A DNA stretch of 64,000 bases. It comes from a virus. Shown here in pieces: positions 6,586 through 55,612 of this stretch. Numbering within the stretch: the first letter of the stretch is position 1; every line of letters starts with the position of its first letter. The notes beneath the pieces were generated by a model. The model saw nothing but the letters and a program-made list of their open reading frames with translations. It was not told the DNA's origin and made no database searches. The stretch is taken from positions 10,605 to 74,604 of the IMG/VR virus record IMGVR_UViG_3300032675_001827; one strand, given 5' to 3'. Both the position numbers and the translations under genes were made by a program.

Positions 6586-6899
6586 TGTATACGGTTGTAA
6601 GTGATTATTATGGAACAGGCGAAGGACGTACCATTATGATGTGTATTTGCAGAGGTTTTCCAGATGCAACGCATCCTAAGTACGATACTGAAACTGATCC
6701 AAAATTTTGGGCATTAGAAAGTTTTAAAAAGCAATTTGGTGAATTTTATACCTATGGCGCCGATCTGCACGAAGGTTTATTTTTAGACTTTGAAGGAGCA
6801 GAGTTTTTGATTTCAGACCAATTAAGGAAATCGTTAACACAATGGCAAAGCTGCGCAAATCTATTTTACGCTGCTAAATTTCATTTTAATTTCAGCTAA
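6585..6899 (+). CDS. Hypothetical protein
   Basis: TAATG-coupled ORF. Confidence 0.65.
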   Translation: MYTVVSDYYGTGEGRTIMMCICRGFPDATHPKYDTETDPKFWALESFKKQFGEFYTYGADLHEGLFLDFEGAEFLISDQLRKSLTQWQSCANLFYAAKFHFNFS

Positions 6900-6901
6900 A
6901 A

Positions 6902-13834: not shown

Positions 13835-13858
13835 CATTAACATAAACACTGCTACACT
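13831..13858 (+). promoter_or_regulatory. sigma70-type promoter of rIIB
   Basis: TTGACA-16 nt-(TGC)TACACT, then SD AAAGGAG. Confidence 0.65.
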
Positions 13859-13893
13859 TACAACGCAACAACAGCTCAAAGGAGAGCAACACA

Positions 13894-16605: not shown

Positions 16606-17319
16606 ATGAATATTGATCAACGTCAATTAGACTACTTGCGCACATTACGTATACATTTTTGCATACCTTGTTATGGCGGTATGCTAAATGAATGTTTTTT
16701 TATTAGCATGCTAAAGTTCATGGCAGCAGCTAATCAATTGCATTTACAATTTACAATTGACACAATGGTCAATGAAAGCCTAATTCCCCGAGGGCGTAAT
16801 AGTTTGGTAGCTAAATTTCTAGCATTTGAACCAAAAAGCACCCACCTTATGTTTATTGATAGCGATATCGGGTTTGAGCCAGAAGAAGTGATAAAACTAA
16901 TGTTAGCTCAGAAAGATGTTGCTGGAGGACTTTATCCAAAAAAGGCTCTTCCGGTGCAGTATGTGGTGAACAAAATTCCAAACAGTTCAAAAGAAGGCAA
17001 TTTAGTTGAAGTTGCTAATCTTGGTACAGGATTTATGTTAATTAAACGTGAAGTTATTGAAACACTAATTCGTGCAAAACCAGAACTACATTATCAAGAT
17101 GCGATTGGTCTTGACGAAAAATATTCACCTTATAAATATGCTTTGTTCGATACTCTTATCGATCCTGTAACAAAGGAGTATTTAAGTGAAGACTATTATT
17201 TCTGTAAATTGTGGAGAGAGATGGGAGGAAAAATCTGGGCAGATCTTACCATCAAACTTGATCACGCAGGATACTACAAGTTCGGAGGAGATGCAACACA
17301 ACTTGCTCCTCACCTGTGA
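16606..17319 (+). CDS. Phage glycosyltransferase-like protein (GT-A fold)
   Basis: PCYGG, NESLIPRGRN, HLMFIDSDI (DxD), GTGFMLIKR, SEDYYFC. Confidence 0.7.
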   Translation: MNIDQRQLDYLRTLRIHFCIPCYGGMLNECFFISMLKFMAAANQLHLQFTIDTMVNESLIPRGRNSLVAKFLAFEPKSTHLMFIDSDIGFEPEEVIKLMLAQKDVAGGLYPKKALPVQYVVNKIPNSSKEGNLVEVANLGTGFMLIKREVIETLIRAKPELHYQDAIGLDEKYSPYKYALFDTLIDPVTKEYLSEDYYFCKLWREMGGKIWADLTIKLDHAGYYKFGGDATQLAPHL

Positions 17320-24381: not shown

Positions 24382-26643
24382 TTAAATCTCGTTGTTTACT
24401 AATTCAATATCTTGCTGTTGAAAATTGGTTTCAATTATGTGATGTACTAGATTTCCATTATCAGCTGTGAATAAAACTCCGCCGCCATTTTTAAGTTTAC
24501 CAAATAAAATTTCTCTGCTCAAAGGCTTTTTAACGTGCTCCTGCATGACTCTTGCCAATGGGCGTGCACCCATGTTTTTATCAAACCCTTTGTCAATCAA
24601 CCATTGCTTGGCTTGTGCATCAAATGCAATAGTTACACTCTTATTTTGACTTAGGTCATTGAGCTGATTGATAAATTTATCTAGCACTTTGACCATGCTA
24701 TCTTTTGTCAATCTGTTAAAATGAATAGTAGCGTCAAGACGGTTGCGGAATTCAGGAGTAAACCACAACTTGACTGCCTCTTGCCCTGCATCATTGCGTT
24801 CTGAATTACCAAAGCCAATTGAATTTTTTTCCATATCTGAAGCACCGAGATTTGATGTAAAAATCAAAAAGACATTGCGAGCGCTTGCAGTTTTACCTGC
24901 TTGACTGGATATCATTCCGTTGTCCATTACTTGTAAGAAAATAGATACAATATCTGGATGGGCTTTTTCAATTTCGTCGCATAAAATAACTGCATGAGGA
25001 TGTTGTTCTAGTTCATTTATGAGAATTCCAGATCCTGCCGAACCGTCGCCGTAACCTACATAACCGGGCGGCGATCCGATAAATTTGCTGACGCTGTGTT
25101 TTTCCATAAATTCACTCATATCAAATCTTATAAACGGGATATTAAGAGTAGCTGCCAATTGTTTTGCAATTTCTGTTTTTCCTACTCCTGTTGGTCCGGC
25201 AAACAAAAAGGATCCAAGTGTTTTGTTACCTTCGCGTAGACCAGATTTACTGATCAGTACAGCATCTGTTAGATTTAATACAGCTTCGTCTTGACCAAAA
25301 ACGGTAGATTTTAGTGTGTTTTCCAATTGTTCAAGATCAACTATCTCTTGTTCACTATCTGATTTGATAGGTATCTTAGTCATCTGACTGATTTCATAGG
25401 CTATTTCCTCAGTACCAATGCTTTCAACACGTTCATGTAAAGGTTTAATTTTCTGTCGTGCGCCTGCTGAATCTACTATGTCAAGTGCTTTGTCAGGCAA
25501 GCGTTTATCATGTATATATTTTACGCTTAAGTCAACTGCGCTGTCCAAAGCAGCTTTGGTGTAATTTACACCGTGAAATTGACTATAGTATTCACTTAGA
25601 GCATTTACAATGGTTTTAGAATCTTTGATTGATGGTTCTAGTACATCAATACGTTGAAATCTACGCATCAATGCGCGATCTTTTTCAAAATGTTTGCGAA
25701 ACTCTTCTTGTGTTGTACTGCCAATGCACCGAATATCACCTCTGCTGAGTGCAGGTTTGAGCAGATTAGCTGCATCCATTGCACCGTTGCTGCCGCTGCC
25801 GGCGCCCATAATCATATGAATTTCATCAATGAATAAGATTGCATGTGGAAGTGCAGTAAAAGCTGAAATAATGTTTTGCATACGTTCTTCAAAATCACCT
25901 CTAAATTTTGTACCAGCTATTACACTGCTTATATCTAGGCTATAAATGATTTTGTCATTTAGTGTATCAGGAACTGTGCCTTCAACAATATTCTTGGCCA
26001 AACCCTCTACTATCACTGTTTTTCCAACACCCGGATCGCCTAGAAGAATGCCATTGTTTTTATGCCTTCTAGCCATGATCTGTGTAATTTTTAGAATCTC
26101 AGTTTCTCGACCAATCAATGGATCAATTTTCTTTTGTTTTGCTTTTTCATTGAGATTCACACAGTAATGTTCTAGAATTTCGCGAGCTTCTTTAATATTT
26201 GTAGTTGTTTGCTGCTGACTTTTTGTCTTTTGCAACAGTGATAGAACAATTTCTTTCTCAAGACCTGCTGCATTTAAAAAATATGATGCATGGCTATTTT
26301 CGATGTTGAACATAGCGAGAAATAGATCCATACATCCCATATCACTGCGTGAAGAAAAAATGGTCTGAGTTTTGGCTTTTTTAACTGCTGTTAGCAGCAG
26401 TGAAGTATGACGCGGTTGATAAGATCCGGTTTTCACTAATACATGATTAGTTGCATCATGAATGTAAGCACGAACATCATCGGTTAATTTTTTAAGATCT
26501 CCTGATGCTTGTGTTATTAAGGCTTGAATATCCTCTAACTCTAACAGAGCCATCAAAAGATGTTCTAAGGTAACAAATTCGTGCCTTAATCCAGCAGCAA
26601 TTATATAAGCACGCTTTACAACATCTTCAAAACTATTTTGCAT
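24382..26643 (-). CDS. clpA: ATP-dependent Clp protease ATP-binding subunit ClpA
   Basis: HEFVTLEHLL, IDPLIGRE, GDPGVGKT, FRGDFEER, LFIDEIH, GPTGVGKTE, RFDMSEF, PPGYVG, DEIEKAHPD, PEFRNRLD, MGARPL; no ClpB middle domain. Confidence 0.93.
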   Translation of the reverse strand: MQNSFEDVVKRAYIIAAGLRHEFVTLEHLLMALLELEDIQALITQASGDLKKLTDDVRAYIHDATNHVLVKTGSYQPRHTSLLLTAVKKAKTQTIFSSRSDMGCMDLFLAMFNIENSHASYFLNAAGLEKEIVLSLLQKTKSQQQTTTNIKEAREILEHYCVNLNEKAKQKKIDPLIGRETEILKITQIMARRHKNNGILLGDPGVGKTVIVEGLAKNIVEGTVPDTLNDKIIYSLDISSVIAGTKFRGDFEERMQNIISAFTALPHAILFIDEIHMIMGAGSGSNGAMDAANLLKPALSRGDIRCIGSTTQEEFRKHFEKDRALMRRFQRIDVLEPSIKDSKTIVNALSEYYSQFHGVNYTKAALDSAVDLSVKYIHDKRLPDKALDIVDSAGARQKIKPLHERVESIGTEEIAYEISQMTKIPIKSDSEQEIVDLEQLENTLKSTVFGQDEAVLNLTDAVLISKSGLREGNKTLGSFLFAGPTGVGKTEIAKQLAATLNIPFIRFDMSEFMEKHSVSKFIGSPPGYVGYGDGSAGSGILINELEQHPHAVILCDEIEKAHPDIVSIFLQVMDNGMISSQAGKTASARNVFLIFTSNLGASDMEKNSIGFGNSERNDAGQEAVKLWFTPEFRNRLDATIHFNRLTKDSMVKVLDKFINQLNDLSQNKSVTIAFDAQAKQWLIDKGFDKNMGARPLARVMQEHVKKPLSREILFGKLKNGGGVLFTADNGNLVHHIIETNFQQQDIELVNNEI

Positions 26644-27142
26644 TTTTATTCTGCTTCCTTTTCTTATCTAGTTTTTTCTTAGCCATGCTAAGACTTAATT
26701 TTCCTACACGATCTGTAAAGCATATTCCTTGACAGTGATCAAATTCGTGCATCCATACTCTAGCTTCTAACCCTTCTAGCCTTTCAGTTGTTTCTGTACC
26801 TTCTAAACTGAAATACCTTGCAATCACACCTTCTGGACGTTTTACTTTGAGTAGCAGGCCTGGAAAGCTGAGGCAACCTTCCTCCATTATAATCATGTTG
26901 AAACTGGCTCCAACTATCTCTGGATTAACGCAGATTCTTATTTTATCGTTAACAAGCATAGCAAACATAGCTAAATCTATGCCCAATTGGCATGCGCTTA
27001 CACCAAGCGCATTTTGCTCATAAATTGTTTTAACAAGCAACGAGGCTATTGGTTGCAGTGTATTTTTGTATGTGTCAAATTGTTCTTGAGTTACCAATTG
27101 TGTTTTGGTATGTAACACTTTATTTGTTGATTCAACTAACAT
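26633..27142 (-). CDS. def: Peptide deformylase
   Basis: LGVSACQLG, EGCLSFP, HEFDH. Confidence 0.9.
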   Translation of the reverse strand: MLVESTNKVLHTKTQLVTQEQFDTYKNTLQPIASLLVKTIYEQNALGVSACQLGIDLAMFAMLVNDKIRICVNPEIVGASFNMIIMEEGCLSFPGLLLKVKRPEGVIARYFSLEGTETTERLEGLEARVWMHEFDHCQGICFTDRVGKLSLSMAKKKLDKKRKQNKNAK

Positions 27143-27163
27143 GTATAATTTTTAACCTTACTA

Positions 27164-28054
27164 CTAATGGTTGTCAATGCTACGATTTTTTTGGATTTGA
27201 CTTAGTAAACTTAAATTTTCTGCGGAAAGATTCTGCGGTATTTCTAATTCTATAATCAAATACAAATCGCCGTGGGTGCCTGGATGTTCTCTTAATGGCA
27301 TACCTTGATTAACTATTCGCAATTTAGTTCCATGTTGAGTCCCTGGCGGGATCGTTACTGAGATTTTATGACCGTTAATTGCATAAATGTGCAATTTGGT
27401 TCCAACAATGGCTGAAATAGCGTCAACTTTGCAATGATGTTCTAAATGATTCCCGTGCCTAACAAATTTAGCATGCGGTGCGATTTCTACATGAATGTAC
27501 AAATCACCAGGCGGTAAACTGGTATTGCTATGATCGCCTTGCCCGGCATATCTTATTCTAGTGCCGTTGTCAATACCTTTGGGAATATCTATTACCAAAT
27601 CAATTTTTCTACCACTGTTGGTAGTAAATCCAAGTGGTATCTGCTTTCCGTTATAGGAATCTTCTAGACTTATGTTAATGTTTAAATTTACATCTCTATT
27701 ACGCTGAGGAGCTCTTCCAAAACCAGGAAAACCATGTTGACTGAAAAATTGTGCTACAAAATCATCAATATTAGTTGGATTATCAAAAGGACGACCATTT
27801 ACATTTACATTCCAATGAACTCCTCCATGATTTCCATGAAAAGGGTTCTTACGAGTTTGATCGTATTCTCTACGTTTGATTTCGTCACTTAGAATTTCAT
27901 ATGCTGCACTTATTTCTTTAAATTTAACTTCAGCGTCTTTATTGCCAGAATTGCGATCAGGATGCCACTGCATTGCAAGTTTCCGATAGGCTGCTTTAAT
28001 TTCATCAGCTGACGCTGTTTCGTTAATGCCTAATGTTTCATAGTGTGTTGCCAT
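27164..28054 (-). CDS. DnaJ/CbpA-type co-chaperone (J domain plus C-terminal domain, no Zn finger)
   Basis: HYETLG, IKAAYRKLA..WHPDRN, PGDLY, GDLYL; ends TAG TAG TAA. Confidence 0.9.
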   Translation of the reverse strand: MATHYETLGINETASADEIKAAYRKLAMQWHPDRNSGNKDAEVKFKEISAAYEILSDEIKRREYDQTRKNPFHGNHGGVHWNVNVNGRPFDNPTNIDDFVAQFFSQHGFPGFGRAPQRNRDVNLNINISLEDSYNGKQIPLGFTTNSGRKIDLVIDIPKGIDNGTRIRYAGQGDHSNTSLPPGDLYIHVEIAPHAKFVRHGNHLEHHCKVDAISAIVGTKLHIYAINGHKISVTIPPGTQHGTKLRIVNQGMPLREHPGTHGDLYLIIELEIPQNLSAENLSLLSQIQKNRSIDNH

Positions 28055-28134: not shown

Positions 28135-28842
28135 ATGTCAGATTCCTCGTTAGTACCAACCAATAAAGCTAGTATTCTAGAACTTGTATTGTCATACTTA
28201 TCAAATACTAAACCAGTATTAATGTTTATCCACCTTGTTTGGTTTACCATTGTGTGCGCCATTTTAAGCATAACCTATCTTGTATCGTTTCATTTTACTA
28301 ATTTAATAGATATATATCAAGAAGCACATAATATTCAAAAATTTAACTCCAATTTAGTTTTCAGCATGCAACAAGATTCCGCAATAAATGCGAATCTAAA
28401 TGAGCTTGTTAGCAAAACACATGCTAATCGTGCTTATCTTTTTAGATATCATAATGGCTTAGCCGCTGTAAGTGGCGTTCCGTTTTTCTTTCAAACTAAT
28501 ACGCACGAAGTGATAAGTCCGGGTACGCCTCGCGTAATTCAGTTTGAACAGCATATTCCTGCAAGTATAAATTTGGCCATAAACAACAAATTTATGATGA
28601 ACCAATGTGCTATCATCCCTAAGGTAGACGAAGATAAGGACAGCCAAAATTACTGGTTTTTTCAAAATCGAGGTGCAAAAAGCATTGTACGCTGTCCAGT
28701 GTTTATGCCAAATGGTGATCTTTTCGGGTTTGTTGGAGTAGATTTTACCGATAGGGTTGATATAAAAGATTTAAATCAAATTGAAAATGAAATTAAGATA
28801 GTAGCTAACTCTCTAGCATTAGTATTTGCAACCAAACATTAA
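28135..28842 (+). CDS. Single-pass membrane protein with a GAF-like domain, possibly a T4 gpT-like holin
   Basis: TM at aa ~28-52, RAYLFRYHNG...SIVRCPV....LFGFVGVDF; TAAATA 6 nt before the ATG. Confidence 0.5.
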   Translation: MSDSSLVPTNKASILELVLSYLSNTKPVLMFIHLVWFTIVCAILSITYLVSFHFTNLIDIYQEAHNIQKFNSNLVFSMQQDSAINANLNELVSKTHANRAYLFRYHNGLAAVSGVPFFFQTNTHEVISPGTPRVIQFEQHIPASINLAINNKFMMNQCAIIPKVDEDKDSQNYWFFQNRGAKSIVRCPVFMPNGDLFGFVGVDFTDRVDIKDLNQIENEIKIVANSLALVFATKH

Positions 28843-28880: not shown

Positions 28881-29621
28881 GTGCAAATATTGATCCCCAT
28901 GGGCGGTGCTGGTAGCAGATTTTCAGCTGCCGGATATGATCGTCCAAAACCATTTATAGAATTTCATGGTCAAACAATGATAGAAAATGTGGTTGAAAAT
29001 CTTGGGCTTGATAATGAATATATCTTTGTAACGCAGCGCAGCCATTATGATGAATTTAGACTGGTTTATGAACGTATTCGAAACAAAGTACAGAAGCTAC
29101 AGGTAGCAGTATTAGAAGGAATGACACGCGGGGCTGCAGAAAGTTGCTTGTACGCAAAAGATTTTCTTGATTTAGATATGCCACTAATGATCGCTAATTG
29201 CGATCAGATGCTCGAATGGAACCCTGTTGTATTTAAAGCCTGGCTGTTTGATACAAAGATAGATGGCGCTATAATGACATTTGAAAGCCAAAGCCCTAAG
29301 AATAGCTTTGCAAGGCTGGACGAAGATGGGTTTGTAGTAGAAACAGCTGAAAAAAAAGTTATAAGTCCTTACGCAACAAACGGAATTTACGTGTGGAAAC
29401 GTGCAGCTGATTTCGTTTCAGCTGCAGAAGAATTGATTGCTAGAGATTTACGAACGAACAATGAATTTTATGTAGCCCCTTGTTATAATCTTAATATTGA
29501 ACGTGGGCAAAAGATCAAAATCTATCCCATTAACGGTCACTGGCCTATTGGTACACCGCAGGATCTAACCATATATCTGGATCATTTTGGAGGAAAGCGT
29601 AATGCAAATACACACAGTTGA
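28881..29621 (+). CDS. Sugar-phosphate nucleotidyltransferase (GT-A / NTP transferase family)
   Basis: IPMGGAGSRF..AGY..PKPFI, TRGAAES, IANCDQ, AEKKVIS, NNEFYVAP, IGTPQDL. Confidence 0.85.
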   Translation: MQILIPMGGAGSRFSAAGYDRPKPFIEFHGQTMIENVVENLGLDNEYIFVTQRSHYDEFRLVYERIRNKVQKLQVAVLEGMTRGAAESCLYAKDFLDLDMPLMIANCDQMLEWNPVVFKAWLFDTKIDGAIMTFESQSPKNSFARLDEDGFVVETAEKKVISPYATNGIYVWKRAADFVSAAEELIARDLRTNNEFYVAPCYNLNIERGQKIKIYPINGHWPIGTPQDLTIYLDHFGGKRNANTHS

Positions 29622-29937
29622 TAGTTTAGTAGGTGGTTGGTTTGTTGGTGCATTTTCTGGCGCAGTGTATCGCACCAGTGCGGTAGAAGTTTCATACAAA
29701 CAGCATTATGCAGGCGAAAAATGGCCTGCACATTATCATAAAATAGCTGACGAAATAAACTATCTAATAAGCGGCAAAATGGAAGTTGGCGGGCAAATGT
29801 TAGAAGGACCTGTTATTTTTACAATTCCCAAAGGAGAAGTTTCAGCACCAGTATTTCACACAGATGTAACACTAATTGTAGTCAAAGTCCCTGGTGCACT
29901 CAACGACAAATATAATCTGGATGATCCAACAGTATGA
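29602..29937 (+). CDS. Small cupin-fold protein (possible sugar isomerase/epimerase)
   Basis: GGWFVGAF, HYHK..DEIN..ISG, VVKVPG..NDKY; coupled to the nucleotidyltransferase. Confidence 0.7.
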   Translation: MQIHTVDSLVGGWFVGAFSGAVYRTSAVEVSYKQHYAGEKWPAHYHKIADEINYLISGKMEVGGQMLEGPVIFTIPKGEVSAPVFHTDVTLIVVKVPGALNDKYNLDDPTV

Positions 29938-30482
29938 TAGTAGAGCGCGAAGATCACAAATATTGTTTAGATATTGGAAGACCAACATTTTATACAGATG
30001 AACACAGAGATTTTTACAAAAAGATTTTTGATGTAATTGAAAACTCGCCAATACCTATGGTTGTAAACGGTATTTATAATCGGATAAAAAAAATGCTTTA
30101 TGCAGGGTCTGGATATGGCGGGGGAGGTTTTGCTTTTTGCTTTTGGTTCGCAACCAAAGAAGACAGAAGAGAATTTGCACGATCGATGAAAGGCATTGAA
30201 GTATCTATAGAAGACTGGCGAAATGTTACGTGGTATCAACCTTATCAATCTAAAATTTTGGTTTTGAAGTTCAACGGCAAGTATCTAGATCATGTGCAGC
30301 AATTTGCACAAAACAATGACATTACCATGCAACCATATATGAGTCCGCCACAAGGATTTGGCCGGGAATTGGATAAATCTCAATGGGATGTTATTCCAGG
30401 TCTACATGTGGCATCAGGTGATTACAAATTATTGTTAGAGTTAAAGCATCATCTCAATGATGTATTTTTAGATTTTGATTGA
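29934..30482 (+). CDS. Hypothetical protein
   Basis: ATGA-coupled ORF. Confidence 0.6.
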   Translation: MIVEREDHKYCLDIGRPTFYTDEHRDFYKKIFDVIENSPIPMVVNGIYNRIKKMLYAGSGYGGGGFAFCFWFATKEDRREFARSMKGIEVSIEDWRNVTWYQPYQSKILVLKFNGKYLDHVQQFAQNNDITMQPYMSPPQGFGRELDKSQWDVIPGLHVASGDYKLLLELKHHLNDVFLDFD

Positions 30483-30500
30483 CATTTTGGAGTTGCATAA

Positions 30501-30704
30501 ATGAATAAAGAACTGTTCCGTACACTGTTATGGCGAGCAAGTGAGGGCTACAACGATAGCTGGAGTGCTGTTGATCCAGAAGTACTGGAAAATTTCGCAG
30601 AGTTAATTGTCCGAGAATGTGCAAAAATTGTTAATGACAATAATTTTGCAGGCAGCACACTAGGTGATAGGTTGCTGTTTCCTTATTTTGGAATTGAACA
30701 ATGA
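30501..30704 (+). CDS. Small phage protein (..FAELIVREC.. family)
   Basis: LENFAELIVRECA motif; SD GGAG. Confidence 0.65.
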   Translation: MNKELFRTLLWRASEGYNDSWSAVDPEVLENFAELIVRECAKIVNDNNFAGSTLGDRLLFPYFGIEQ

Positions 30705-30714
30705 TGTCGTGAAA

Positions 30715-31440
30715 TTACATTTTAATATTACGACGATCTAGTTCTCTTTTCAATGCAACAAGTTTATTGTTATCGCGCGAAATAGCATTGCGTATTTCAC
30801 CTGCTACACCCGAAGGCAATGCACGCAGAACAGCATTAACTAGTTGTTCTGCTTGTGTTTGCGATTTTGCATGTGCTGCCTTTTTTTCAGCAGTTTCTTT
30901 GTCTTTTTTCTCTGCATATTTGTCTGAAATACTTAGCCCTGTTGCTGTTTTATCTTTAGATCTTTTCTTGTCTGATTTAGCATAATCGTCTAGACGATCT
31001 AAAACATCTTGGTATGCCAGATCCTGTTTATGCCATGCTAATGCATTACGTGCCAGATGTTCGTAATTTGTATCTTTTCCAATCTTAACTAAAATGGGTG
31101 TTAGTGCTTCTGCCATATGCCTTAAATTTTCAGCCGATGGTTCTCGTAGGAACATACGTAATGCACTAGATGATTGACTGGGAGCTTGGTCAGCTAGATG
31201 ATGCAAGTGAGAGATTAAATTTTTGCCGTCTTCGTTTAACCATTTTGAAATTACTCCCTTTTCCAACAAACGGAAGCCGCCCATACTGTCATTGTTTTCG
31301 GCATATTTCTGTGCCATGGATTCTAGTTTACTGTACAGTTCGGTTACGGGATTTCCAATGTCACTGGCAAGTAATTTTAAGGTGCTGGCTAGAGAGACAC
31401 TTTCAAGCATCACTCCGTCAATTATTTCAACTATACGCAT
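30715..31440 (-). CDS. Hypothetical late protein (possible head-associated)
   Basis: MRIVEI start; TAAATA at 31467-31472 (minus strand) and SD GGAG. Confidence 0.55.
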   Translation of the reverse strand: MRIVEIIDGVMLESVSLASTLKLLASDIGNPVTELYSKLESMAQKYAENNDSMGGFRLLEKGVISKWLNEDGKNLISHLHHLADQAPSQSSSALRMFLREPSAENLRHMAEALTPILVKIGKDTNYEHLARNALAWHKQDLAYQDVLDRLDDYAKSDKKRSKDKTATGLSISDKYAEKKDKETAEKKAAHAKSQTQAEQLVNAVLRALPSGVAGEIRNAISRDNNKLVALKRELDRRNIKM

Positions 31441-31556
31441 GTCTAGACTCCGTTTCTTGATAGGATTATTTATCTCAATAGTTTGTGCCTAAGTAATTGA
31501 CAGAAAAGAAGCCTTATGACTAAAATTAAATTTATTTGTAACAGCAAAGGGCCGCG

Positions 31557-32696
31557 ATGACAATTGACATTGTTCAAGATAAAAAAGATTTAGACAATTA
31601 CTTTTATGTAAAATATTTCCTTAAGAGTGCAACTTCACTCTACGATGCAGCGTTTGATCTTGCAGTTGGTCAAAGTATCGGTAATCCAAGCATGAGAAGT
31701 GTTTGGGAAACCCCAGAAATGATTGCCTCTTATTGTGCAAAAATTCTACGAAGCCCTGATTTAGACCTAGCAGAAGGCCAAGTTGAAATAGGTTTTCCTT
31801 TGGTTAATATTGATTGGGCAACAGATGGTATAGCTCAGCTTCTGTGTACCATAGCGGGCGGACAAGTTGATATAGATCGTATCAAGGGCTGCCGAGCAAT
31901 AGGCTTGGAATTTAGTGAAAGTTTTATAGAATCTAATTTCAAAAAACCTAAATTTGGATTAAGCGGATTTAGAGCTTTAACCGGGCAGTATAACAAGCCA
32001 CTATTTGGTGGCATTATTAAACCAAAAACTGGAATTACCCCTGATCAATTACTTGATATGACCAAGCAGTTAGTCGACGGAGGCTGTGATTTTATAAAAG
32101 AAGATGAGATTATGGCAAACCCTGCTGTTTGCAGCCTTGAAGACCGTGTAGAATTAATTAGCCGGTACATAAGCAACACCAAAACAGTATACTGTTTTTG
32201 CATCAATGCAGACCCTGCATATATTGTACCAAGAGCTAAGTTTGTTGCTGAAAATGGTGGGCGCGGTGTACACATTAATGTATGGAGCGGTCTTGGCTCA
32301 TACAAAAGCATTCGTGATTTAGACTTACCCCTTTACATACACTATCAAAAGAGTGGTGATAGAATATTTACAAGCAAATACAATCCATTTTCTATTTCGT
32401 GGCAACTTTGCTGTCAGCTGGCAGCTTGGTGCGGAGTTGATACTATCCACGCTGGCATGTGGGGTGGTTATCTGTCAGATCCAGAAGATGAACTACGCGA
32501 AACACTGAAAATACTAACTGATAGGAACGTTACCCCTGCGCTTAGTTGCGGATTAACAAGTGAAAGTATAAGGCCAATAGTTGATAAATTTGGCGTAGAC
32601 TGGCTGGGAAATAGTGGTGGTGGAATACATAGCCATCCAGAAGGTAGTCAAACCGGGGCGGCAAAAATTAGAGCTGCTGTAGACCAAATAGGCTAA
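31557..32696 (+). CDS. RuBisCO-like protein (form IV, non-carboxylating)
   Basis: PKFGLSG.R, GGIIKPKTG, GGCDFIKEDE, G.DTIHAG, ALSCG, GGGIHSHPEG; TTGACA-18-TAAAAT promoter at 31497-31526. Confidence 0.88.
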   Translation: MTIDIVQDKKDLDNYFYVKYFLKSATSLYDAAFDLAVGQSIGNPSMRSVWETPEMIASYCAKILRSPDLDLAEGQVEIGFPLVNIDWATDGIAQLLCTIAGGQVDIDRIKGCRAIGLEFSESFIESNFKKPKFGLSGFRALTGQYNKPLFGGIIKPKTGITPDQLLDMTKQLVDGGCDFIKEDEIMANPAVCSLEDRVELISRYISNTKTVYCFCINADPAYIVPRAKFVAENGGRGVHINVWSGLGSYKSIRDLDLPLYIHYQKSGDRIFTSKYNPFSISWQLCCQLAAWCGVDTIHAGMWGGYLSDPEDELRETLKILTDRNVTPALSCGLTSESIRPIVDKFGVDWLGNSGGGIHSHPEGSQTGAAKIRAAVDQIG

Positions 32697-32701
32697 AAGC
32701 A

Positions 32702-33319
32702 TTGAAAATAGCAGTATCATTCAGTGGGTTACCTAGGTTACATCACAGGTCTATGTATGCGTGGGAAGGTTTAATCAAAAATACTTCAGCTGATGTCTAC
32801 ATGCACCTGTGGAACACCGGCGATGGTGCAGCTGAAAAAATGGTTGAGATTTATTCACCTGTTTCTTATAGTATTGAAAATTTCAGAAATTTTGATGTGT
32901 CTCAGTATACAGAACGTCTGCAGTATTCAAATCCGTACAACGTTTTAAGTATGTGGACTAGTATATCAGAAAGCATTAATTTGGTATTAGGATCTAAACA
33001 AACATACGATATAGTAATTCGTGCAAGATCTGATGTGGAATTTGATCAATTTCAATTCCTAAACAACCACGGAGTAATAATACCCGGAAAACCAGCTGAA
33101 ATATACGAGTATAATGGCGAGAGGTACCCTGGCTGGCACGACATGATTGCTTATGGTAATTTAAGTAGCATGCGCGAGTACGCAAATACCTTGTATTCAA
33201 TACCTACGATTTATTCAGAAGGCAGTCCATTTTTTAGTGAATTTTTTCTTAGCACGCACCTTTATAGAACGAAAACAAACGTTACACATCATAACATATA
33301 TGCAGATATAGTAAGATAG
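32702..33319 (+). CDS. Putative glycosyltransferase-like protein (paralogue family)
   Basis: MKIAVSFSGLPR, DVYMHLW, YDIVIRARSD, HDMIAYG. Confidence 0.55.
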   Translation: MKIAVSFSGLPRLHHRSMYAWEGLIKNTSADVYMHLWNTGDGAAEKMVEIYSPVSYSIENFRNFDVSQYTERLQYSNPYNVLSMWTSISESINLVLGSKQTYDIVIRARSDVEFDQFQFLNNHGVIIPGKPAEIYEYNGERYPGWHDMIAYGNLSSMREYANTLYSIPTIYSEGSPFFSEFFLSTHLYRTKTNVTHHNIYADIVR

Positions 33320-33332
33320 CAAGGATTTTTAA

Positions 33333-35249
33333 ATGGTAGATTTTATGCAATACGAGGACAATCCTGATAGTCCTGAAACTCTTTTGACATTTAGCAATGA
33401 ACTGGCAAATGATAGATTACATAATCTTTCAGTTCTTATTGCAGAACGGGGTTTAGAGCGTACTGTAGATCATACAACACGAACAAAATTATTAGAACAA
33501 ATTAGTATAAGTGGTTTTTATACAAAAGGGCCAGATGGTAAAAAACGAGGTAAAGAAGCCTGTGAAGAATTAGCATTAGATCGCAAAAACAGCTGGCATA
33601 CCAAAAATTTAGCCCGCCAGAACAGCACTTACTATGCTAGAAGTTTGTCTTCACTATTACCAAAGACTGAATGCAAACCGTTTGTCTATACTCCGCCAGA
33701 TGATTATAAACCTATGAATCCTAGTATTACCAATAAAGGTAGCGAGTTATGGATGATTCAACGAACTGTAAATTATGTTATTAGGCCCGATGGCAGCTAT
33801 AACATGCGAGGCGACAGTGCTATTAGAACACGCAATTATCTCTGTCAATTAGATGAACAATTACAATGTGTGTCTGCTAGAGAAATACTACCTCCGCTAA
33901 ATCTGCCGCCAGCACAATATGGGGCTGTAATTGGATGGGAGGATTGCAGACTGTTTTACTGGAATGATAGTTTTTGGTGTACTAGCACGGTTCGAGAATT
34001 AAATGCAGAAGGTTACTGTGAAATTGTTCTTTCTAAAATTATAGAACAAGATGGTTTTTTATATTTTTCCGACTATTGTGTAATACAGCCGCAATTTTGT
34101 GGTAGAGAGCATCAAAAAAATTGGATGCCAATGGTGGTAGGCACAGATTTATATTTTATGTACAGCAGTGATCCAGCAAGAATCATTGATGTAAATGGAA
34201 ACTTGATAAGCAGCAAAGCGACACATATTGCAGCCGACAGTTTTAGAGGAGGTAGTCAACTATTGCCGTTTAATGGAGGTTGGCTAGCCATAATACACGA
34301 AAGTCATATAATGCCTGATAACAAAAGAAGGTATATGCATAGACTTGTATGGTATGATAACATAGGACGATTATCCAAATACAGTGAAGCTTTTTTTATA
34401 CACACACTTGGTATAGAATTTGCAGCTGGATTGGCCTTTAAAAAAGACAGCGGCCAAATTGTTATAAGCTTTGGTTTAGCTGATAAGGAAAGCTGGGTGG
34501 CATTGATTGACGAAAACGAACTTTGTCAAATACTTCAACCGGCAGGTGTAATCCTGCCAAGACTAGGCGACTTAAATGATACAAGCTGGATTATAAGTCA
34601 GACCAACCGTTCGCTGCTTGACAGCGATAGCGTCAGCAAAGCAACTGGTATTGCGTTGCGAGCTGGCATATCTAGTCACGAGGATGCAGCCAAAAATTGG
34701 GATAACCTTGTAGCAGTTTGGCATGCAACTATGACAACTGATATCGATAGTCCAGTTATGGATGTAGCTGCTACAGAAGGCAGTGCGTTTCTTCCTGCCT
34801 TAGAAAGATTTGGCTATCAACATTTATTCAGTATAAACATTGATGAACCAAATCCACGCACAATTGGAAAAATTCATTATCAACATGGCGATTGTACCAA
34901 CACAAGTTTCGAAGATAATTACTTTGGATTTATATCCTGTTTGAGTGTTATAGAACATGGAGTTGATATTCAAAAATTCATGCAGGAATCTGCAAGAATT
35001 CTCAAGTCAGGTGGCTATCTCTTGGTAAGCACAGATTATTGGCAAGACACTGTTGATACATTTGGGCAAACTGCATTTGGATCACCTGTGAAAGTTTTTA
35101 CAGCTCAAGAAATCGCTGAATTAATAAATTTTGCTCAATCAGCAGGCTTACAAATTACCAGCAATGTTGATTTAACCTGCAACGAACGAGTGGTTAATTG
35201 GATAGGCATGGATTATACATTTATTAATTTGCTTTTTAGGAAGCCTTGA
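33333..35249 (+). CDS. Multidomain protein: helical N-terminus, GH130-like beta-propeller, class I SAM methyltransferase
   Basis: NPSI, WEDCRL, QKNWMP, RGGSQ, IEFAAGL; C-terminal CLSVIEHG, RILKSGG. Confidence 0.65.
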   Translation: MVDFMQYEDNPDSPETLLTFSNELANDRLHNLSVLIAERGLERTVDHTTRTKLLEQISISGFYTKGPDGKKRGKEACEELALDRKNSWHTKNLARQNSTYYARSLSSLLPKTECKPFVYTPPDDYKPMNPSITNKGSELWMIQRTVNYVIRPDGSYNMRGDSAIRTRNYLCQLDEQLQCVSAREILPPLNLPPAQYGAVIGWEDCRLFYWNDSFWCTSTVRELNAEGYCEIVLSKIIEQDGFLYFSDYCVIQPQFCGREHQKNWMPMVVGTDLYFMYSSDPARIIDVNGNLISSKATHIAADSFRGGSQLLPFNGGWLAIIHESHIMPDNKRRYMHRLVWYDNIGRLSKYSEAFFIHTLGIEFAAGLAFKKDSGQIVISFGLADKESWVALIDENELCQILQPAGVILPRLGDLNDTSWIISQTNRSLLDSDSVSKATGIALRAGISSHEDAAKNWDNLVAVWHATMTTDIDSPVMDVAATEGSAFLPALERFGYQHLFSINIDEPNPRTIGKIHYQHGDCTNTSFEDNYFGFISCLSVIEHGVDIQKFMQESARILKSGGYLLVSTDYWQDTVDTFGQTAFGSPVKVFTAQEIAELINFAQSAGLQITSNVDLTCNERVVNWIGMDYTFINLLFRKP

Positions 35250-35893
35250 TGAAAATAGCACTGGCTTTAAGTGGGCTGACACGGATACATGCCATATCAG
35301 CTGCAAGCTGGGGTAGAATTATCGGAAAGTATCAACCAGATGTTTATATTCATTCATGGTGCTTGCCTGCAGATATGTCTGTTATATATGACCAACTAGG
35401 CCGGGTGTTCAAACCTAAACAAATATTGCTGGAAGAGCCTATAAGTATTGACACAGCCCCTTACCCAGACCGGCACTGGCCCTATATAAATGTTGACCGC
35501 AGCTTAAGTATGTGGCATAGTATTTGTAGAGCTTATAGTATGGTAATTGAGCATGACGTAAATTATGATATAATTATAAGAGGCAGAATGGATTGGCATG
35601 TTCACAGCTTAGATTTAATTGATCATGATGGTATTGTTTTGCCGTATGATAGAGATAAGATTCCTTTAAAATTTAACTATAATGGTAACAACATGCACGG
35701 CTTAAACGATCATTTTGCTTATGGGTCGCCAAAATGGATGAAATGTTACACAAATACTCTTGCACTTATACCGCAACTATACTCTCAAGAGGGTGTGGAT
35801 TACTGTCCTGAAAATTTTCTTGCAGCAAGTCTGGCCAAACAACATGTACCAGTAATGCTACAAAATCTTGAACATTGTTTAATACGGAGTTGA
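35246..35893 (+). CDS. Putative glycosyltransferase-like protein (paralogue family)
   Basis: MKIALALSGLTR, DVYIHSW, YDIIIRGRMD, NDHFAYG, PENFL. Confidence 0.55.
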   Translation: MMKIALALSGLTRIHAISAASWGRIIGKYQPDVYIHSWCLPADMSVIYDQLGRVFKPKQILLEEPISIDTAPYPDRHWPYINVDRSLSMWHSICRAYSMVIEHDVNYDIIIRGRMDWHVHSLDLIDHDGIVLPYDRDKIPLKFNYNGNNMHGLNDHFAYGSPKWMKCYTNTLALIPQLYSQEGVDYCPENFLAASLAKQHVPVMLQNLEHCLIRS

Positions 35894-35894
35894 A

Positions 35895-36971
35895 ATGAAA
35901 ATAGGAATATATGGTCCGGCTAAAAACGAACGACACCATGTAGATGCTTGGTTTGAAAGTTGCAAAAATGCCGATGTAATTTGCATTGCTGATACAGGAA
36001 GTACAGATGGTACACGAGAACGATTGATAGAACTAGGTGTAAATGTAACTGATGTAAGAATAGTACCATGGAGATTCGACGATGCTTTTAATATGGCAAT
36101 GTACCTTTTGCCAGATGATGTTGATGTCTGCATTCGCCTTGATATAGACGAACGACTCCAGCCAGGATGGCGAGAAGCGTTAGAACGAGATTGGACACCA
36201 GAAACTACAAGATTACGATATCCTTACGTTTGGAACTGGAATCCAGATGGCACACCTGGCAGGCAATGGTATAGTGATCGTATCCATGCTAGATCAGGTT
36301 ACAGGTGGGTCGGTGCAACACACGAAGGTTTATGCAGTAGAATACCCGAGGTTCAAACATTTACAGATGATGTTAAAATTTGGCAATTTCCAGACGCCAA
36401 AGACAAGAAGAATGATTTATCATTGTTGCTAGAAAGTGTGAGAGACTGGCCACAAGATGCAAGACTATGGGCATACTTGGGTAGAGAATATATGTATCAA
36501 GGTCTATATGAAAAGAGCGTTGAAACTTATAAACAGTTTTTAACTATGAGCTGGGATAAAGTAGAACGCGGCCAGGCTATGGTCAATCTAAGCATTACTG
36601 ATTCAGGTAATAAAGAGTTTTGGCTTAGAATGGCCAGTATTGAAACACCAGGACACAGAGAACCGTTGGTCAATCTTGCACAATACTATTACGATAAAAA
36701 AGATTGGACAAAATGCTATGAAGCATCTAAAAAGGCATTAGAAATAACTGTTCATCCTATGGATTATACTTGTACTCCCGAAGCATGGGGTTGGCAACCA
36801 CATGATTTACTGAGTATAGCTGCATGGAATCTTGGATTATTTCAAGAAAGTTATGAACAAAGCCTGATAGCTCTTGAGAAAAATCCGCATGATCAACGAC
36901 TGCAGAGTAATCTAAAATTGGTAGCCGATTTTATAACAGAAAATAATCTAAATTCAAACAAAACCAGCTGA
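35895..36971 (+). CDS. Glycosyltransferase family 2 with C-terminal TPRs
   Basis: AKNE, DTGSTDGT, WRFDDA.N, LDIDE, HE; TPR helices. Confidence 0.85.
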   Translation: MKIGIYGPAKNERHHVDAWFESCKNADVICIADTGSTDGTRERLIELGVNVTDVRIVPWRFDDAFNMAMYLLPDDVDVCIRLDIDERLQPGWREALERDWTPETTRLRYPYVWNWNPDGTPGRQWYSDRIHARSGYRWVGATHEGLCSRIPEVQTFTDDVKIWQFPDAKDKKNDLSLLLESVRDWPQDARLWAYLGREYMYQGLYEKSVETYKQFLTMSWDKVERGQAMVNLSITDSGNKEFWLRMASIETPGHREPLVNLAQYYYDKKDWTKCYEASKKALEITVHPMDYTCTPEAWGWQPHDLLSIAAWNLGLFQESYEQSLIALEKNPHDQRLQSNLKLVADFITENNLNSNKTS

Positions 36972-38654: not shown

Positions 38655-39426
38655 TCTATTTGACAGCAACCATTATGGCTTCAATTTCAAATACCTATCA
38701 AGCATAGATATAGATTTAGACCATAGTCTGCTTCAAAAAATATTAGAATATTTGGTGCAAAATGCTTCTGTGTCTATGCCACTAGGAAAACAAGATCCAT
38801 TTTGGTTAGGACAAAGAATAAGGGGTGTGGATATGGATACTGTACCTGAAGAACTAAAAAGCTTGAATCCTGCACAAATTGAATTCTTTTTACGACAACG
38901 CACCGATGTCAGTTGGAATTGGGTTGATACTCCAATTACGCAAACGGTGTATAAATTACTTGAACCAATTAGTTCTTTGTATAAAACTCTAACAAGAGTT
39001 AAAATTTTTGCTCAAATTCCGACTAAAGCCATTTTGCCACACAGAGATTTAGTAGCCGGTGCAATGTACAACAGGATGCATGAAGATACCGTTACTAGAC
39101 TTGGAACAAATCTTCTTAGATATAATGGCGAGGAATGGTTCAAAAAAATTTATACAGTTCCTGATAATTTTACTCATGCTGAGCAAGGCTATCTAGCATT
39201 AAAAATACCATTGGATTTTCTCCAACCAGGGAGATCATATCTTTGCGATTTTGAAAATAATAGATATTATTACGATCCATCTAATAAGCCATATTTGCTT
39301 AACGAATACGAAATTCTACATGGTGTTGATGCAGTTGATCAATGGAGAGGTGTAGTGTTTCTCGACGGGATACTAGATATAAGTAAAATTAATTGTATGC
39401 AGAAACCTATGCACAGAAATTCTTAG
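38647..39426 (+). CDS. Putative 2OG-Fe(II) oxygenase-like protein
   Basis: I.PHRD (HxD), HGVD...R. Confidence 0.45.
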   Translation: MYDLFDSNHYGFNFKYLSSIDIDLDHSLLQKILEYLVQNASVSMPLGKQDPFWLGQRIRGVDMDTVPEELKSLNPAQIEFFLRQRTDVSWNWVDTPITQTVYKLLEPISSLYKTLTRVKIFAQIPTKAILPHRDLVAGAMYNRMHEDTVTRLGTNLLRYNGEEWFKKIYTVPDNFTHAEQGYLALKIPLDFLQPGRSYLCDFENNRYYYDPSNKPYLLNEYEILHGVDAVDQWRGVVFLDGILDISKINCMQKPMHRNS

Positions 39427-39917
39427 TGTGTCTCCCATGGAAACACAATCCATCTAGGGTTGCTATTTTTATTCACAGATAGTCCGTAAAAATCAACAAA
39501 AAAATCAGAAACTAGGTTGTCAACTAAAACGGCAGATCGCAGATTATTTTGACAAACTGTTGTCCAATCCTCTTGCGACATTACGCCTGCAACATTAGAG
39601 TACCAATCCTCTTGAATCCACTTGAATGTAGCCCCTGAATCATTTATATCGTCTACTAATAGAATTTTTTTACCGCCAATTAGATCCTCTGGCATCCAGC
39701 AATTTGTTTCGCAATCTTTGTCATCGCGCAGGCTTACTTTTAAGCCGTACATAGGAACTTCCAATATATGGCTCAACATTACTGCCGGAACCGCGCCGCC
39801 TCGTAATATTCCTACTATATAATCAGGCCTCCACTTGCTTTTCAAAATATCAAAAGCAAGCTTGTTGGTTAAATTCTGAAACTTTTTCCAAGAAAAAACT
39901 CTAGTTTTTAGGTCCAT
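39423..39917 (-). CDS. Purine phosphoribosyltransferase (Gpt-like)
   Basis: GILRGG.VPA, ILLVDDINDSGAT (PRPP loop), WIVFPWE. Confidence 0.88.
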   Translation of the reverse strand: MDLKTRVFSWKKFQNLTNKLAFDILKSKWRPDYIVGILRGGAVPAVMLSHILEVPMYGLKVSLRDDKDCETNCWMPEDLIGGKKILLVDDINDSGATFKWIQEDWYSNVAGVMSQEDWTTVCQNNLRSAVLVDNLVSDFFVDFYGLSVNKNSNPRWIVFPWETH

Positions 39918-43102: not shown

Positions 43103-43855
43103 CTAAGATTTTGCATACCATTTCAAAATTGTAGAAATTACAGGATGACGTTCTACATCATTTTTAGTAAATTCTATAACTTTAATACGATCGTGCGATT
43201 CAAATCTATTTAGAAAATCAGTTAATCCGTTTTTTTGTCCTCGATCACTTTGGTCAATGTCTCCGGTAACAATGATCTTGCTACCTTCGCCAATTCTAGT
43301 CAAAACGCTTACCATACTATTAGGTGTTGTATTTTGGCCTTCATCTACTATCACTATGCTGTTTTTCAAAGTACGTCCTCTGACAAACGCCATTGGTAGC
43401 AGTTCTATTACATTTTCTTCTATCATAGCCTGTATTTCTTTTACAGAATAATATTCTTCGAAAATTTCTAAAATAGGTCTGGTCCAAGGAGCCATTTTAG
43501 CATAAATGTCGCCTGGCAAAAATCCTATGTCCCTGTCATCTAATGCAATGTTAGGACGTGTTATAACAATTTTATTGATTACGTGTTCTTTGAGTTGTTG
43601 AATTGCATAAAGTGTGGCTATGTAACTCTTTCCAGTTCCTGCTGGACCGGTAGCAAAAACAATGTCTACCTTTGGATTATCAAGCGCATCTATGTAAGCT
43701 TCTTGCGCTAGGTTTTTAGGAAGTAAAATAACTTTTTGTTTTATTGGCTTTCTATAGTTGTTTATATCTATTATATTTTCTTTTGATTGATTGTTTGAAT
43801 AGCTGCGTGTTTTCTGATCTGCCTTATAACCGGCGTGCTTTAAACGTCTGCTCAA
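43103..43855 (-). CDS. phoH: PhoH-like ATPase
   Basis: GPAGTGKS, IGFLPG, RGRTL, DEGQN, TRIGEGSK, GDIDQSD, RHP. Confidence 0.93.
   Translation of the reverse strand: MSRRLKHAGYKADQKTRSYSNNQSKENIIDINNYRKPIKQKVILLPKNLAQEAYIDALDNPKVDIVFATGPAGTGKSYIATLYAIQQLKEHVINKIVITRPNIALDDRDIGFLPGDIYAKMAPWTRPILEIFEEYYSVKEIQAMIEENVIELLPMAFVRGRTLKNSIVIVDEGQNTTPNSMVSVLTRIGEGSKIIVTGDIDQSDRGQKNGLTDFLNRFESHDRIKVIEFTKNDVERHPVISTILKWYAKS

Positions 43856-43886: not shown

Positions 43887-49904
<6,018 letters not shown>

Positions 49905-50320: not shown

Positions 50321-55612
<5,292 letters not shown>

Follow-up and report, generated by a model that had tools for sequence, protein, structure and literature searches.

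A phage RuBisCO-like protein tied to a sugar nucleotidyltransferase and its possible part in making an activated sugar

Why would a phage carry a RuBisCO-like protein (RLP) among genes for activating and transferring sugars? This question is raised by a 64,000-nt stretch of DNA, hereafter the window, which covers positions 10,605-74,604 of the 74.6-kb IMG/VR virus record IMGVR_UViG_3300032675_001827 and encodes a form IV-like RLP beside a putative sugar-1-phosphate nucleotidyltransferase, a small predicted cupin and several glycosyltransferase-like genes. The carrier is a large freshwater phage: CheckV put the completeness of the record at ~18%, so the whole genome should measure several hundred kb, and the same DNA was found in ~20 lake and freshwater metagenome runs from 2016-2023. 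RLPs characterised so far all serve catabolism or salvage, in methionine salvage or in the breakdown of apiose or acid sugars. On balance, we think that the RLP described here and the adjacent nucleotidyltransferase, in phages usually together with the cupin, make an unusual nucleotide-activated sugar for the assembly of an O-methylated glycan. Within this proposal, the role of the RLP as a biosynthetic partner of the nucleotidyltransferase in glycan building is quite likely. If true, the RuBisCO fold would have a biosynthetic role in nucleotide-sugar making, which has never been demonstrated for it, and a family whose wide occurrence in phages was described in 2019, without an assigned role, could be given a function.

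Judged by its sequence, the protein lies inside the RuBisCO large-chain superfamily, since its catalytic TIM-barrel domain (residues 139-376) matches PF00016 RuBisCO_large with an E value of 3.9e-28 and 99 bits, above the Pfam gathering score of 30.1. All open reading frames (ORFs) named in an earlier, sequence-only reading of this DNA exist where they had been placed, and this one, described there as a 379-aa protein of RuBisCO fold, holds each of the quoted motifs in its translation (IIKPKTG, DFIKEDE, AVGQS, HYQK, GGYLS, ALSCG and GGG). In a HMMER alignment to the solved RuBisCO 8dht, the protein retains K175 (as K155), K177 (K157), the carbamylated K201 (K181), D203 (D183) and E204 (E184), as well as the glycine and phosphate-loop positions S379 (S330), G381 (G332) and G403/404 (G354/355). 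The same alignment places G38 at E60, N43 at T65, P44 at W66, Q264 at H294, K265 at R295 and Y305 at K334, while the replacement of N123 by G102 was taken from the family alignment instead. From the complete catalytic set (E60, N123, K175, K177, K201, D203, E204, H294 and K334), E60, N123, H294 and K334 are therefore missing; the sequence-only reading had rightly seen that K175, K177 and the carbamylation/Mg motif are kept and that E60, H294 and K334 are lost. Across the clade to which the protein belongs, 24 positions are invariant in all members, phage and cellular (113/113). The invariant residues include those retained (K155, K157, K181, E182, D183, E184, S330, G332 and G354), those replaced (Q264, Y305 and G102, with G38 invariant too) and a family-specific group (R47, D105, H239, N241 and C331). 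Given that retained residues and replacements are equally invariant, the active site appears to be selected and specific, a signature that would fit a functional enzyme with its own chemistry and neither a decaying gene nor a carboxylase. As part of the explanation as a whole, we hold it to be somewhat probable that the RLP is an active but non-carboxylating member of the superfamily, in which all residues for CO2 addition and hydration appear to be replaced.

Could the protein nevertheless be a bona fide form III-like carboxylase, which would bring a nucleotide-derived pentose bisphosphate into glycolysis during infection? Its best NCBIfam and PDB scores are indeed to form III, the archaeal RuBisCO of AMP/nucleotide salvage (154 bits; 8dht and the T. 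kodakarensis enzymes). With form III it shares K175, K177, K201, D203, E204 and H327, and a phosphoribosyltransferase gene lies 7 kb away. However, none of the NCBIfam equivalogs for RuBisCO or RLPs is matched above its cut-off, with 154 bits versus 497 for form III, 134 versus 438 for the large-subunit subfamily PRK04208, 73 versus 489 for form II, 118.8 versus 700 for OiaX, and 95.4 versus 513.6 (TIGR03332) and 105.4 versus 409 (NF007095) for MtnW; as a control, genuine form III, II/III and I references pass these cut-offs. Moreover, the four carboxylation residues are all replaced, and invariantly so, the clade branches with form IV references rather than with form III, and the neighbouring genes are of another kind, with no AMP phosphorylase or ribose-1,5-bisphosphate isomerase seen. 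We thus leave a carboxylase next to no chance, and the description of a phage-borne, non-carboxylating RLP has held up, with four catalytic residues replaced and scores below the form I-III cut-offs.

The clearest clue to function comes from the genes to which the RLP is attached. A scan of IMG/VR returned 245 viral contigs with RLP relatives, and the best 80 of these were analysed, each with 10-kb flanks. A homologue of the nucleotidyltransferase is present in 78 of the 80 phage loci, near -1050 nt from the RLP start and almost always on the same strand, and a homologue of the cupin in 72, almost always about -340 nt from the RLP start and again on the same strand. With such frequencies and fixed offsets, nucleotidyltransferase, cupin and RLP constitute a conserved triad. 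The first and the last of the three also occur as natural fusions: a search for longer proteins found 18 protein clusters, 666-672 aa in length, that carry PF00483 and PF00016 in one polypeptide. (A 706-aa ORF in a locus of Azospirillum, L125, was considered as a further fusion and rejected, as it owes its length to the high GC content and the RLP is read in a different frame.) The linkage extends to cells. In one-genome-per-species collections, we found carriers in SAR11 (one complete Pelagibacter genome), Legionella drozanskii, L. nautarum, L. maceachernii and Azospirillum oleiclasticum, as well as in Beckwithbacteria and other members of the candidate phyla radiation (CPR), Woese- and Nanoarchaeota, Verrucomicrobiota and others. 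RLP and nucleotidyltransferase are adjacent in ~40 of the 44 cellular loci counted, complete or cultured genomes among them, often with a second nucleotidyltransferase on the other side of the RLP and without a cupin, so the minimal unit is the RLP plus a nucleotidyltransferase. As gene order and fusion indicate, the wiring of this RLP to sugar activation is robust.

The relationship of these proteins to other RLPs was examined in a tree built with IQ-TREE (LG+G4, quick search) from 122 sequences, of which only 9 are references (two of form I, three of form III, one of form II/III, MtnW, OiaX and an OiaX-like RLP, classed by NCBIfam or by record annotation). The tree lacks IV-Photo and IV-DeepYkr references, its MtnW and II/III branches are long, and its phage sample is biased to relatives of the query. 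All nucleotidyltransferase-linked RLPs (113/113) form one clade, with an SH-like approximate likelihood ratio test (SH-aLRT) support of 99, on the form IV side of the tree and apart both from the fully supported OiaX branch and from form III; within it, the window RLP groups with its nearest relatives (loci L002-L006). The basal members are cellular, namely Elusimicrobia, Leptospiraceae and Legionellaceae/Francisellaceae, then SAR11 and DPANN, and the phage RLPs are nested within and interleaved with cellular ones, so that at least 7 changes of label are required. Such a pattern suggests that the clade arose in cells and was exchanged repeatedly thereafter. The clade also contains the sequence of a Beckwithbacteria metagenome-assembled genome (MAG; L093). 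Some 80 divergent 'form IV-like' RLPs, which have the large-chain fold without carboxylase residues and group with Beckwithbacteria, were reported on IMG/VR and groundwater phage scaffolds, some of them of myoviruses or huge phages, and according to the accessible portion of that paper their function was left open (Jaffe, Castelle, Dupont, Banfield 2019, Mol Biol Evol 36:435; PMC6389311). The window RLP is a member of this published clade, an assignment made by shared features: it is phage-borne, divergent from the named RLP subgroups and devoid of carboxylase residues, and its clade includes Beckwithbacteria. What goes beyond the accessible portion of that work, where no link to a nucleotidyltransferase is made, is the near-universal adjacency and fusion with this enzyme, the surface-glycan loci of SAR11, Legionella and DPANN, and the basal cellular branches. 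Literature on RLPs in connection with phage, huge phage, nucleotidyltransferase, Pelagibacter or Legionella likewise yielded no paper that links this clade to nucleotidyltransferases or glycans, and the link is unpublished as far as the literature shows.

Among the references, MtnW/YkrW (2,3-diketo-5-methylthiopentyl-1-phosphate enolase, form IV-YkrW) is the nearest branch (SH-aLRT 92), although its branch is so long (2.24) that this placement is unreliable. It has in common with the window RLP the RuBisCO fold and K175, K201, D203 and E204. MtnW uses Mg2+ and a carbamylated lysine to enolise a ketose 1-phosphate, abstracting a proton adjacent to the phosphate. A salvage enzyme in the manner of MtnW or of the R. 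rubrum isomerase, recycling methylthio- or 5-deoxy-pentose phosphates from the S-adenosylmethionine (SAM) and radical-SAM enzymes of the island, would agree with this placement and with the SAM methyltransferase and radical-SAM genes that are frequent neighbours; in the Bacillus pathway, moreover, a cupin (MtnD) follows the RLP-type enolase step. Yet the MtnW models give 95-105 bits where 409-514 are needed, and the two proteins differ at K177 (Lys here, Met in MtnW), at H294 (Gln versus His) and in loop 6 (Tyr versus Ser). We saw neither MtnA, MtnK, MtnB or MtnX homologues in the islands nor mtn-type neighbours in phage or cellular loci, where the nucleotidyltransferase is linked instead, and its invariant linkage and fusion would be left unexplained. 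Salvage is therefore very improbable. Clustering with methionine-salvage enzymes and no conserved linkage was one outcome that the sequence-only reading had named as speaking against its proposal; we found the RLP outside the methionine-salvage group and its linkage conserved. A second comparison is with OiaX/OiaC, the 3-oxo-isoapionate-4-phosphate decarboxylase/transcarboxylase of apiose catabolism, which are form IV RLPs acting on a keto-acid phosphate derived from a branched sugar. OiaX is the second-best NCBIfam match of the RLP and represents its nearest plasmid-borne homologues (up to ~31% identity), but K177 is Ala/Ser and H294 and K334 are kept in OiaX, and the context there is catabolic, with aldo/keto reductases. 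From the unusual-sugar pathway proposed earlier, the tie to sugar activation and glycosyl transfer has thus survived, through the phage and cellular co-occurrence, the fusions and the neighbours, whereas there is no sign of a branched sugar of the apiose/hamamelose type (119 bits versus 700 for OiaX).

Which compound is activated may be read from the nucleotidyltransferase. It matches PF00483 with 32.6 bits (cut-off 21.2) and phrog_3980 with an E value of 2e-63, and its pyrophosphorylase loop, of the G-x-G-[ST]-R type, reads PMGGAGSRF. The nearest structure is 4evw, an uncharacterised Vibrio pyrophosphorylase (E 1.7e-22), and the next matches of the family profile are mannose-1-phosphate guanylyltransferases, GlmU, RmlA and HddC of the heptose pathway. 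The profile matched no enzyme of the phosphocholine or phosphonate type (no LicC, PntC or TarI), and IspD, the sole enzyme of the polyol-phosphate type, appears as a weak N-terminal match. This ranking suggests that an aldose-1-phosphate is the most likely substrate. The cupin has a perfect motif 1, with H44, H46, E51 and E79 invariant across its family, and the motif-2 His is not conserved. It matches phrog_24762 (E 5e-25) and reaches only 15.2 bits versus 27.2 for Pfam Cupin_2, and its profile finds YxaG (3e-5) and the 113-aa 'Man-6-P isomerase' 7zvm (1.4e-3) in the PDB, so that it resembles small Cupin_2 proteins.

We infer a substrate, a product, an order of steps and a target along the following lines. 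With the Mg2+/carbamyl-lysine machinery for enolisation and the C1-phosphate-binding glycine loops apparently kept, the RLP would enolise a phosphorylated keto-sugar from host central metabolism and deliver a rare glycosyl-1-phosphate, either directly or via the cupin as an accessory isomerase or epimerase. The nucleotidyltransferase would activate this glycosyl-1-phosphate, and transferases would then install the activated sugar. An action of the RLP before nucleotide activation is favoured by a minimal unit that contains no dehydratase, kinase or mutase and by the intact P1 phosphate loops, and we give this order a little less than an even chance. In a specific version, which we regard as doubtful, the RLP would be an isomerase from a ketose-1-phosphate to an aldose-1-phosphate: a ketose-1-phosphate (or ketose-1,n-bisphosphate) would pass through a 1,2-enol-1-phosphate and ring closure to the aldose-1-phosphate, in what would amount to an MtnW-like enolisation towards C1 followed by the reverse of the MtnA or ribose-1,5-bisphosphate isomerase reaction. 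The mechanisms of MtnW and MtnA are the background for this version, in which the cupin and a mini phosphodiesterase (see below) would tailor the intermediate. Alternatively, the RLP may act after activation and enolise a nucleoside diphosphate (NDP)-keto-sugar, as an epimerase or keto-isomerase working with the cupin, by analogy to the cupins RmlC and FdtA. Both in gene order and within the fusions, the nucleotidyltransferase comes before the RLP, and 30 of 81 loci encode SDR epimerase/dehydratases, which could supply NDP-4-keto sugars. The N-terminal domain of the RLP is shortened and may leave the active site more open: at 379 aa the protein is compact next to the 414-470 aa of the reference forms, and T65, W66 and N123, with which the N-domain closes over the substrate, are replaced. 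On the other hand, most loci, and the window too, lack SDR genes, so that the minimal pair would have no keto substrate at hand. Nucleotide-linked substrates are not known for any enzyme of the RuBisCO family, and the P1 phosphate loops show the conservation expected for a simple phosphate monoester. An action after activation is thus unlikely.

Several findings weigh against our proposal. We noticed neither an anomeric kinase nor a phosphomutase in the islands, so the route to a glycosyl-1-phosphate is unexplained unless the RLP itself supplies it, which would be unprecedented. A lineage-specific 1.6-kb insertion, whose two ORFs lack homologues in the 80 related loci, interrupts the triad in the window, whereas the order nucleotidyltransferase-cupin-RLP is contiguous in essentially all other phages. 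The sequence-only reading, which had placed a nucleotidyltransferase and cupin pair 2 kb upstream, was right about the pair; this pair is, however, the conserved core partner of the RLP, set apart here by the insertion. The GH130-like domain of the downstream fusion protein has no Pfam match (PF04041) even at E 5, and its model has a predicted local distance difference test (pLDDT) score of 72. Finally, two neighbours point to another kind of chemistry. A LicD-family phosphotransferase gene divergently adjoins the RLP and nucleotidyltransferase in four Legionellaceae loci (L120-L123; E 3e-43), and a GDPD-like mini phosphodiesterase of ~150 aa (family F3) ranks fourth among the linked genes (56 of 81 loci). 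With these partners, an activated phospho-ester fits as well, and not a classical glycosyl donor alone. Family F3 is present in the closest relative (L002) and absent from all six frames of the window by tblastn and hidden Markov model search, so the copy here may work differently or rely on host enzymes.

If a phospho-ester is made, the RLP would produce a phosphorylated polyol, acid or keto compound, the nucleotidyltransferase would convert it to NDP-X, and X-phosphate would be attached by a phosphodiester, as with phosphocholine or ribitol phosphate, with the mini GDPD-like enzyme handling the phosphodiester. Members of family F3 (e.g. L078 11143-11598) have about half the length of a normal GDPD barrel with invariant H-R-G, E..D, G-H-D and H-x-K, and in one archaeal locus (L101) the enzyme is fused to a nucleotidyltransferase. 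Nevertheless, the nucleotidyltransferase profile ranks aldose-1-phosphate enzymes first, with LicC, PntC and TarI types absent and IspD weak and N-terminal only, and LicD was found neither in any phage locus nor in the window. LicD-family enzymes can transfer sugar-1-phosphates too, as does Mnn4 of yeast, so the LicD neighbour does not separate a phospho-ester from a glycosyl donor. Taken as a whole, including the part given to the mini phosphodiesterase, the phospho-ester has a small share of the probability. The Legionellaceae loci belong to L. drozanskii, L. nautarum, L. maceachernii and a Tatlockia MAG; they contain neither cupin nor mini phosphodiesterase and represent a minimal three-gene module in cultured bacteria, with the LicD gene of L121 at 6773-7624 on the minus strand.

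A nucleotide-activated sugar for glycan assembly, the explanation we prefer, agrees with the wider surroundings of the RLP. A Pfam census of 141 cellular and 118 phage neighbouring proteins is dominated by GT2, methyltransferases, WavE, DegT, GT25, GT1/GT4, Bac_transf, GLF, NeuB and carbamoyltransferase, the content of surface-glycan loci. Other recurrent families among the 81 loci are phrog_13607/DUF7796 (52 loci), CmcI-type (27) and FkbM-type (12) O-methyltransferases, DUF6071 (15), GT11 (14) and radical SAM (12); the window has two paralogues of the first and none of the others. The fold, the residue pattern, purifying conservation, the linkage, the fusion and the glycan-locus context in phages and cells are directly established. 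A rather different use of sugars in phages is the glycosylation of modified DNA bases, as in the T-even phages. The window has T4-like parts (rIIA and rIIB, with RegA in relatives), T-even relatives glycosylate their DNA, and a distant homologue of the nucleotidyltransferase in phiRSL1 adjoins a gene annotated as a hydroxymethylcytosine (HMC)-glucosyltransferase. However, bacteria and archaea carry the same cassette in surface-glycan loci, beside WavE, Bac_transf, LicD, DegT and GT2, and O-methyltransferases, GT11, GT25 and TPR-GT2 are typical of glycan assembly. The 74.6-kb record holds no thymidylate-synthase-like hydroxymethylase (PF00303), which is uninformative as the record is only ~18% of the genome. 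DNA hypermodification is a very poor candidate.

Glycan assembly is also suggested by the genes directly downstream of the RLP in the window (Table 1). Two of them are true paralogues, as the sequence-only reading had recognised (31% identity, E 2e-33). The AlphaFold2 model of the first (pLDDT 95.6) has a GT-A fold, with GT6 enzymes (BoGT6a, GTA/GTB and alpha3GalT) as the best Foldseek matches at TM scores of 0.5-0.56; their conserved motif is R-x-R-x-D plus D147, which is not the canonical DxD, and in Pfam they match only DUF7796, below its cut-off. The 638-aa protein between them, read earlier as a GH130-like/methyltransferase fusion, contains the methyltransferase (Methyltransf_11, E 1.9e-10), while its GH130-like half is supported by a structural model and not by Pfam. 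Matches of the modelled N-terminal domain are to GH130 phosphorylases, synthases and GDP-Man transferases (TM ~0.6), and GH130 members dominate the list through rank 26, whereas a phmmer search of the PDB with the first 456 residues gave chance matches only; an Atlas match to this domain is a lead only. GH130 enzymes are users and releasers of glycosyl-1-phosphates, and stand-alone homologues (~326 aa) occur in 10 loci. The last gene, described as a GT2-TPR protein, matches phrog_13126 over its full length (E 7.7e-84) and TPR_2 (28.2 bits), although its score for Glycos_transf_2 (PF00535) is 18.2 bits and thus below the cut-off of 23.3. Copies of this gene, 58-70% identical, lie downstream of the RLP in loci L002-L006, and the particular downstream set is common to these nearest relatives only. 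The RLP can therefore be said to head a gene run, as had been proposed, in this lineage alone, the universal unit being the nucleotidyltransferase, usually the cupin, and the RLP. A sigma-70-like promoter match, which is a consensus match only, in a region with 43 promoter-type matches where 35 are expected, precedes the RLP by ~30 nt, and an AAGGG element resembling a Shine-Dalgarno sequence precedes its ATG.

According to our proposal, the GT-A paralogues, the GH130-like/methyltransferase fusion and the GT2-TPR protein would use the product, together with ordinary host donors, to build an O-methylated glycan. Its target may be the phage's own collagen-like fibres or, equally possible, the host envelope. 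The genes for collagen-repeat fibre proteins and then a second pair of glycosyltransferase genes lie 7-21 kb downstream of the RLP island, an order that makes virion fibres plausible acceptors.

Cyanomyoviruses offer a comparison without the RLP. Their sugar clusters encode a homologous nucleotidyltransferase (39-45% identity), immediately followed in the Synechococcus phages Bellamy and SynMITS9220M01 by a homologous cupin, while S-CAM9, S-PRM1 and B3/B23 have the homologous nucleotidyltransferase only. In the regions inspected of Bellamy and S-CAM9, this gene is clustered with an SDR epimerase, glycosyltransferases and phosphatases, and in Bellamy also with an aldolase and a kinase. Unlike the enzyme in the window, the nucleotidyltransferase there is fused to a C-terminal part annotated as phosphatase (Bellamy) or to an extra N-terminal part (S-CAM9). 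The separate kinase, aldolase and phosphatase of these clusters may be substitutes for the job of the RLP. Bellamy (L082, MF351863.1 162488-170567), which may thus follow an alternative route to a related activated sugar, is cultured and experimentally tractable.

The possible consequences reach beyond this phage. Gene order in hundreds of phages and fusion hard-wire the RLP to a sugar-activating enzyme. The RLP family is abundant in lake and marine viromes and occurs in surface-glycan loci of SAR11, Legionella and DPANN/CPR, so that the sugar is probably common, and unrecognised, on the surfaces of microbes and viruses, which would matter for phage-host recognition. If the isomerase version were true, phages, SAR11, DPANN and CPR would have an entry from central metabolites, e.g. 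sedoheptulose- or fructose-bisphosphate, into nucleotide sugars that is free of kinase and mutase. Neither the RLP (tblastn) nor the 12-kb cluster (megablast) has a match among 50,697 deposited phage genomes, and no cultured phage can thus serve as a model; the role is directly testable in the cultured carriers L. drozanskii, L. nautarum, L. maceachernii and Azospirillum oleiclasticum.

Table 1. Positions of the RLP, its neighbours and other features in the window
Feature	Position	Strand	Remarks
rIIA/rIIB pair	11693-15057	+	
HNH homing-endonuclease-like protein	17186-19180	+	664 aa
Quality-control block	24382-28054	-	ClpB-like ATPase (phrog_4871 'ATP-dependent protease'), peptide deformylase, DnaJ
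ORF directly 5' of the nucleotidyltransferase	28135-28842	+	235 aa; family f53; no Pfam match beyond weak GAF
Putative sugar-1-phosphate nucleotidyltransferase	28881-29621	+	PF00483; phrog_3980
Small putative metal-site cupin, middle gene of the triad	29602-29937	+	~111 aa; motif G-x5-H-x-H-x4-E-x6-G
Inserted ORF	29934-30482	+	182 aa; no Pfam, PHROG or NCBIfam match
Inserted Lys/Glu-rich ORF	30715-31440	-	241 aa; no family match
Sigma-70-like promoter match	31497-31526	+	TTGACA-18-TAAAAT, 11/12
RLP, form IV-like, nucleotidyltransferase-linked clade	31557-32696	+	379 aa; PF00016
GT-A-fold glycosyltransferase-like protein, paralogue 1	32702-33319	+	phrog_13607/DUF7796 family
GH130-like beta-propeller (~residues 100-406) and SAM methyltransferase (~470-610) fusion	33333-35249	+	638 aa
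GT-A-fold glycosyltransferase-like protein, paralogue 2	35246-35893	+	phrog_13607; DUF7796 23.9 bits, below cut-off
GT2-like glycosyltransferase with C-terminal TPR repeats	35895-36971	+	phrog_13126 'beta-1,4-glycosyltransferase'
Phosphoribosyltransferase-domain protein	39423-39917	-	
PhoH	43103-43855	-	
Giant collagen-repeat fibre-type protein	43947-49904	+	1985 aa
Giant collagen-repeat fibre-type protein	50327-55612	+	1761 aa; five collagen-repeat blocks; C-terminal Peptidase_S74 chaperone domain
GT2/SAM-methyltransferase fusion	55681-56967	+	directly after the fibre genes
GT2	56957-57931	+	second glycosyltransferase set

The remaining features of the window are those of a phage, with rIIA, rIIB, an HNH homing endonuclease, tail-fibre-like and collagen-repeat proteins, PhoH, peptide deformylase, DnaJ and a ClpB-like ATPase. 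Together with a RegA-type translational regulator in related loci, the rIIA/rIIB pair, which is followed here by the HNH protein, suggests a T4-like ancestry for these very large phages. The ORF of family f53 precedes the triad in loci L002-L006 as well. Directly 5' of the island lies the quality-control block on the minus strand, whose DnaJ is full, with both the J domain and the C-terminal domain. The phosphoribosyltransferase-domain protein and PhoH are both downstream of the island, and 15 related loci have PhoH as well, at 7-10 kb from the RLP. The second of the two giant fibre genes coincides with a GC-rich and strongly GC-skewed stretch at 50-54 kb.

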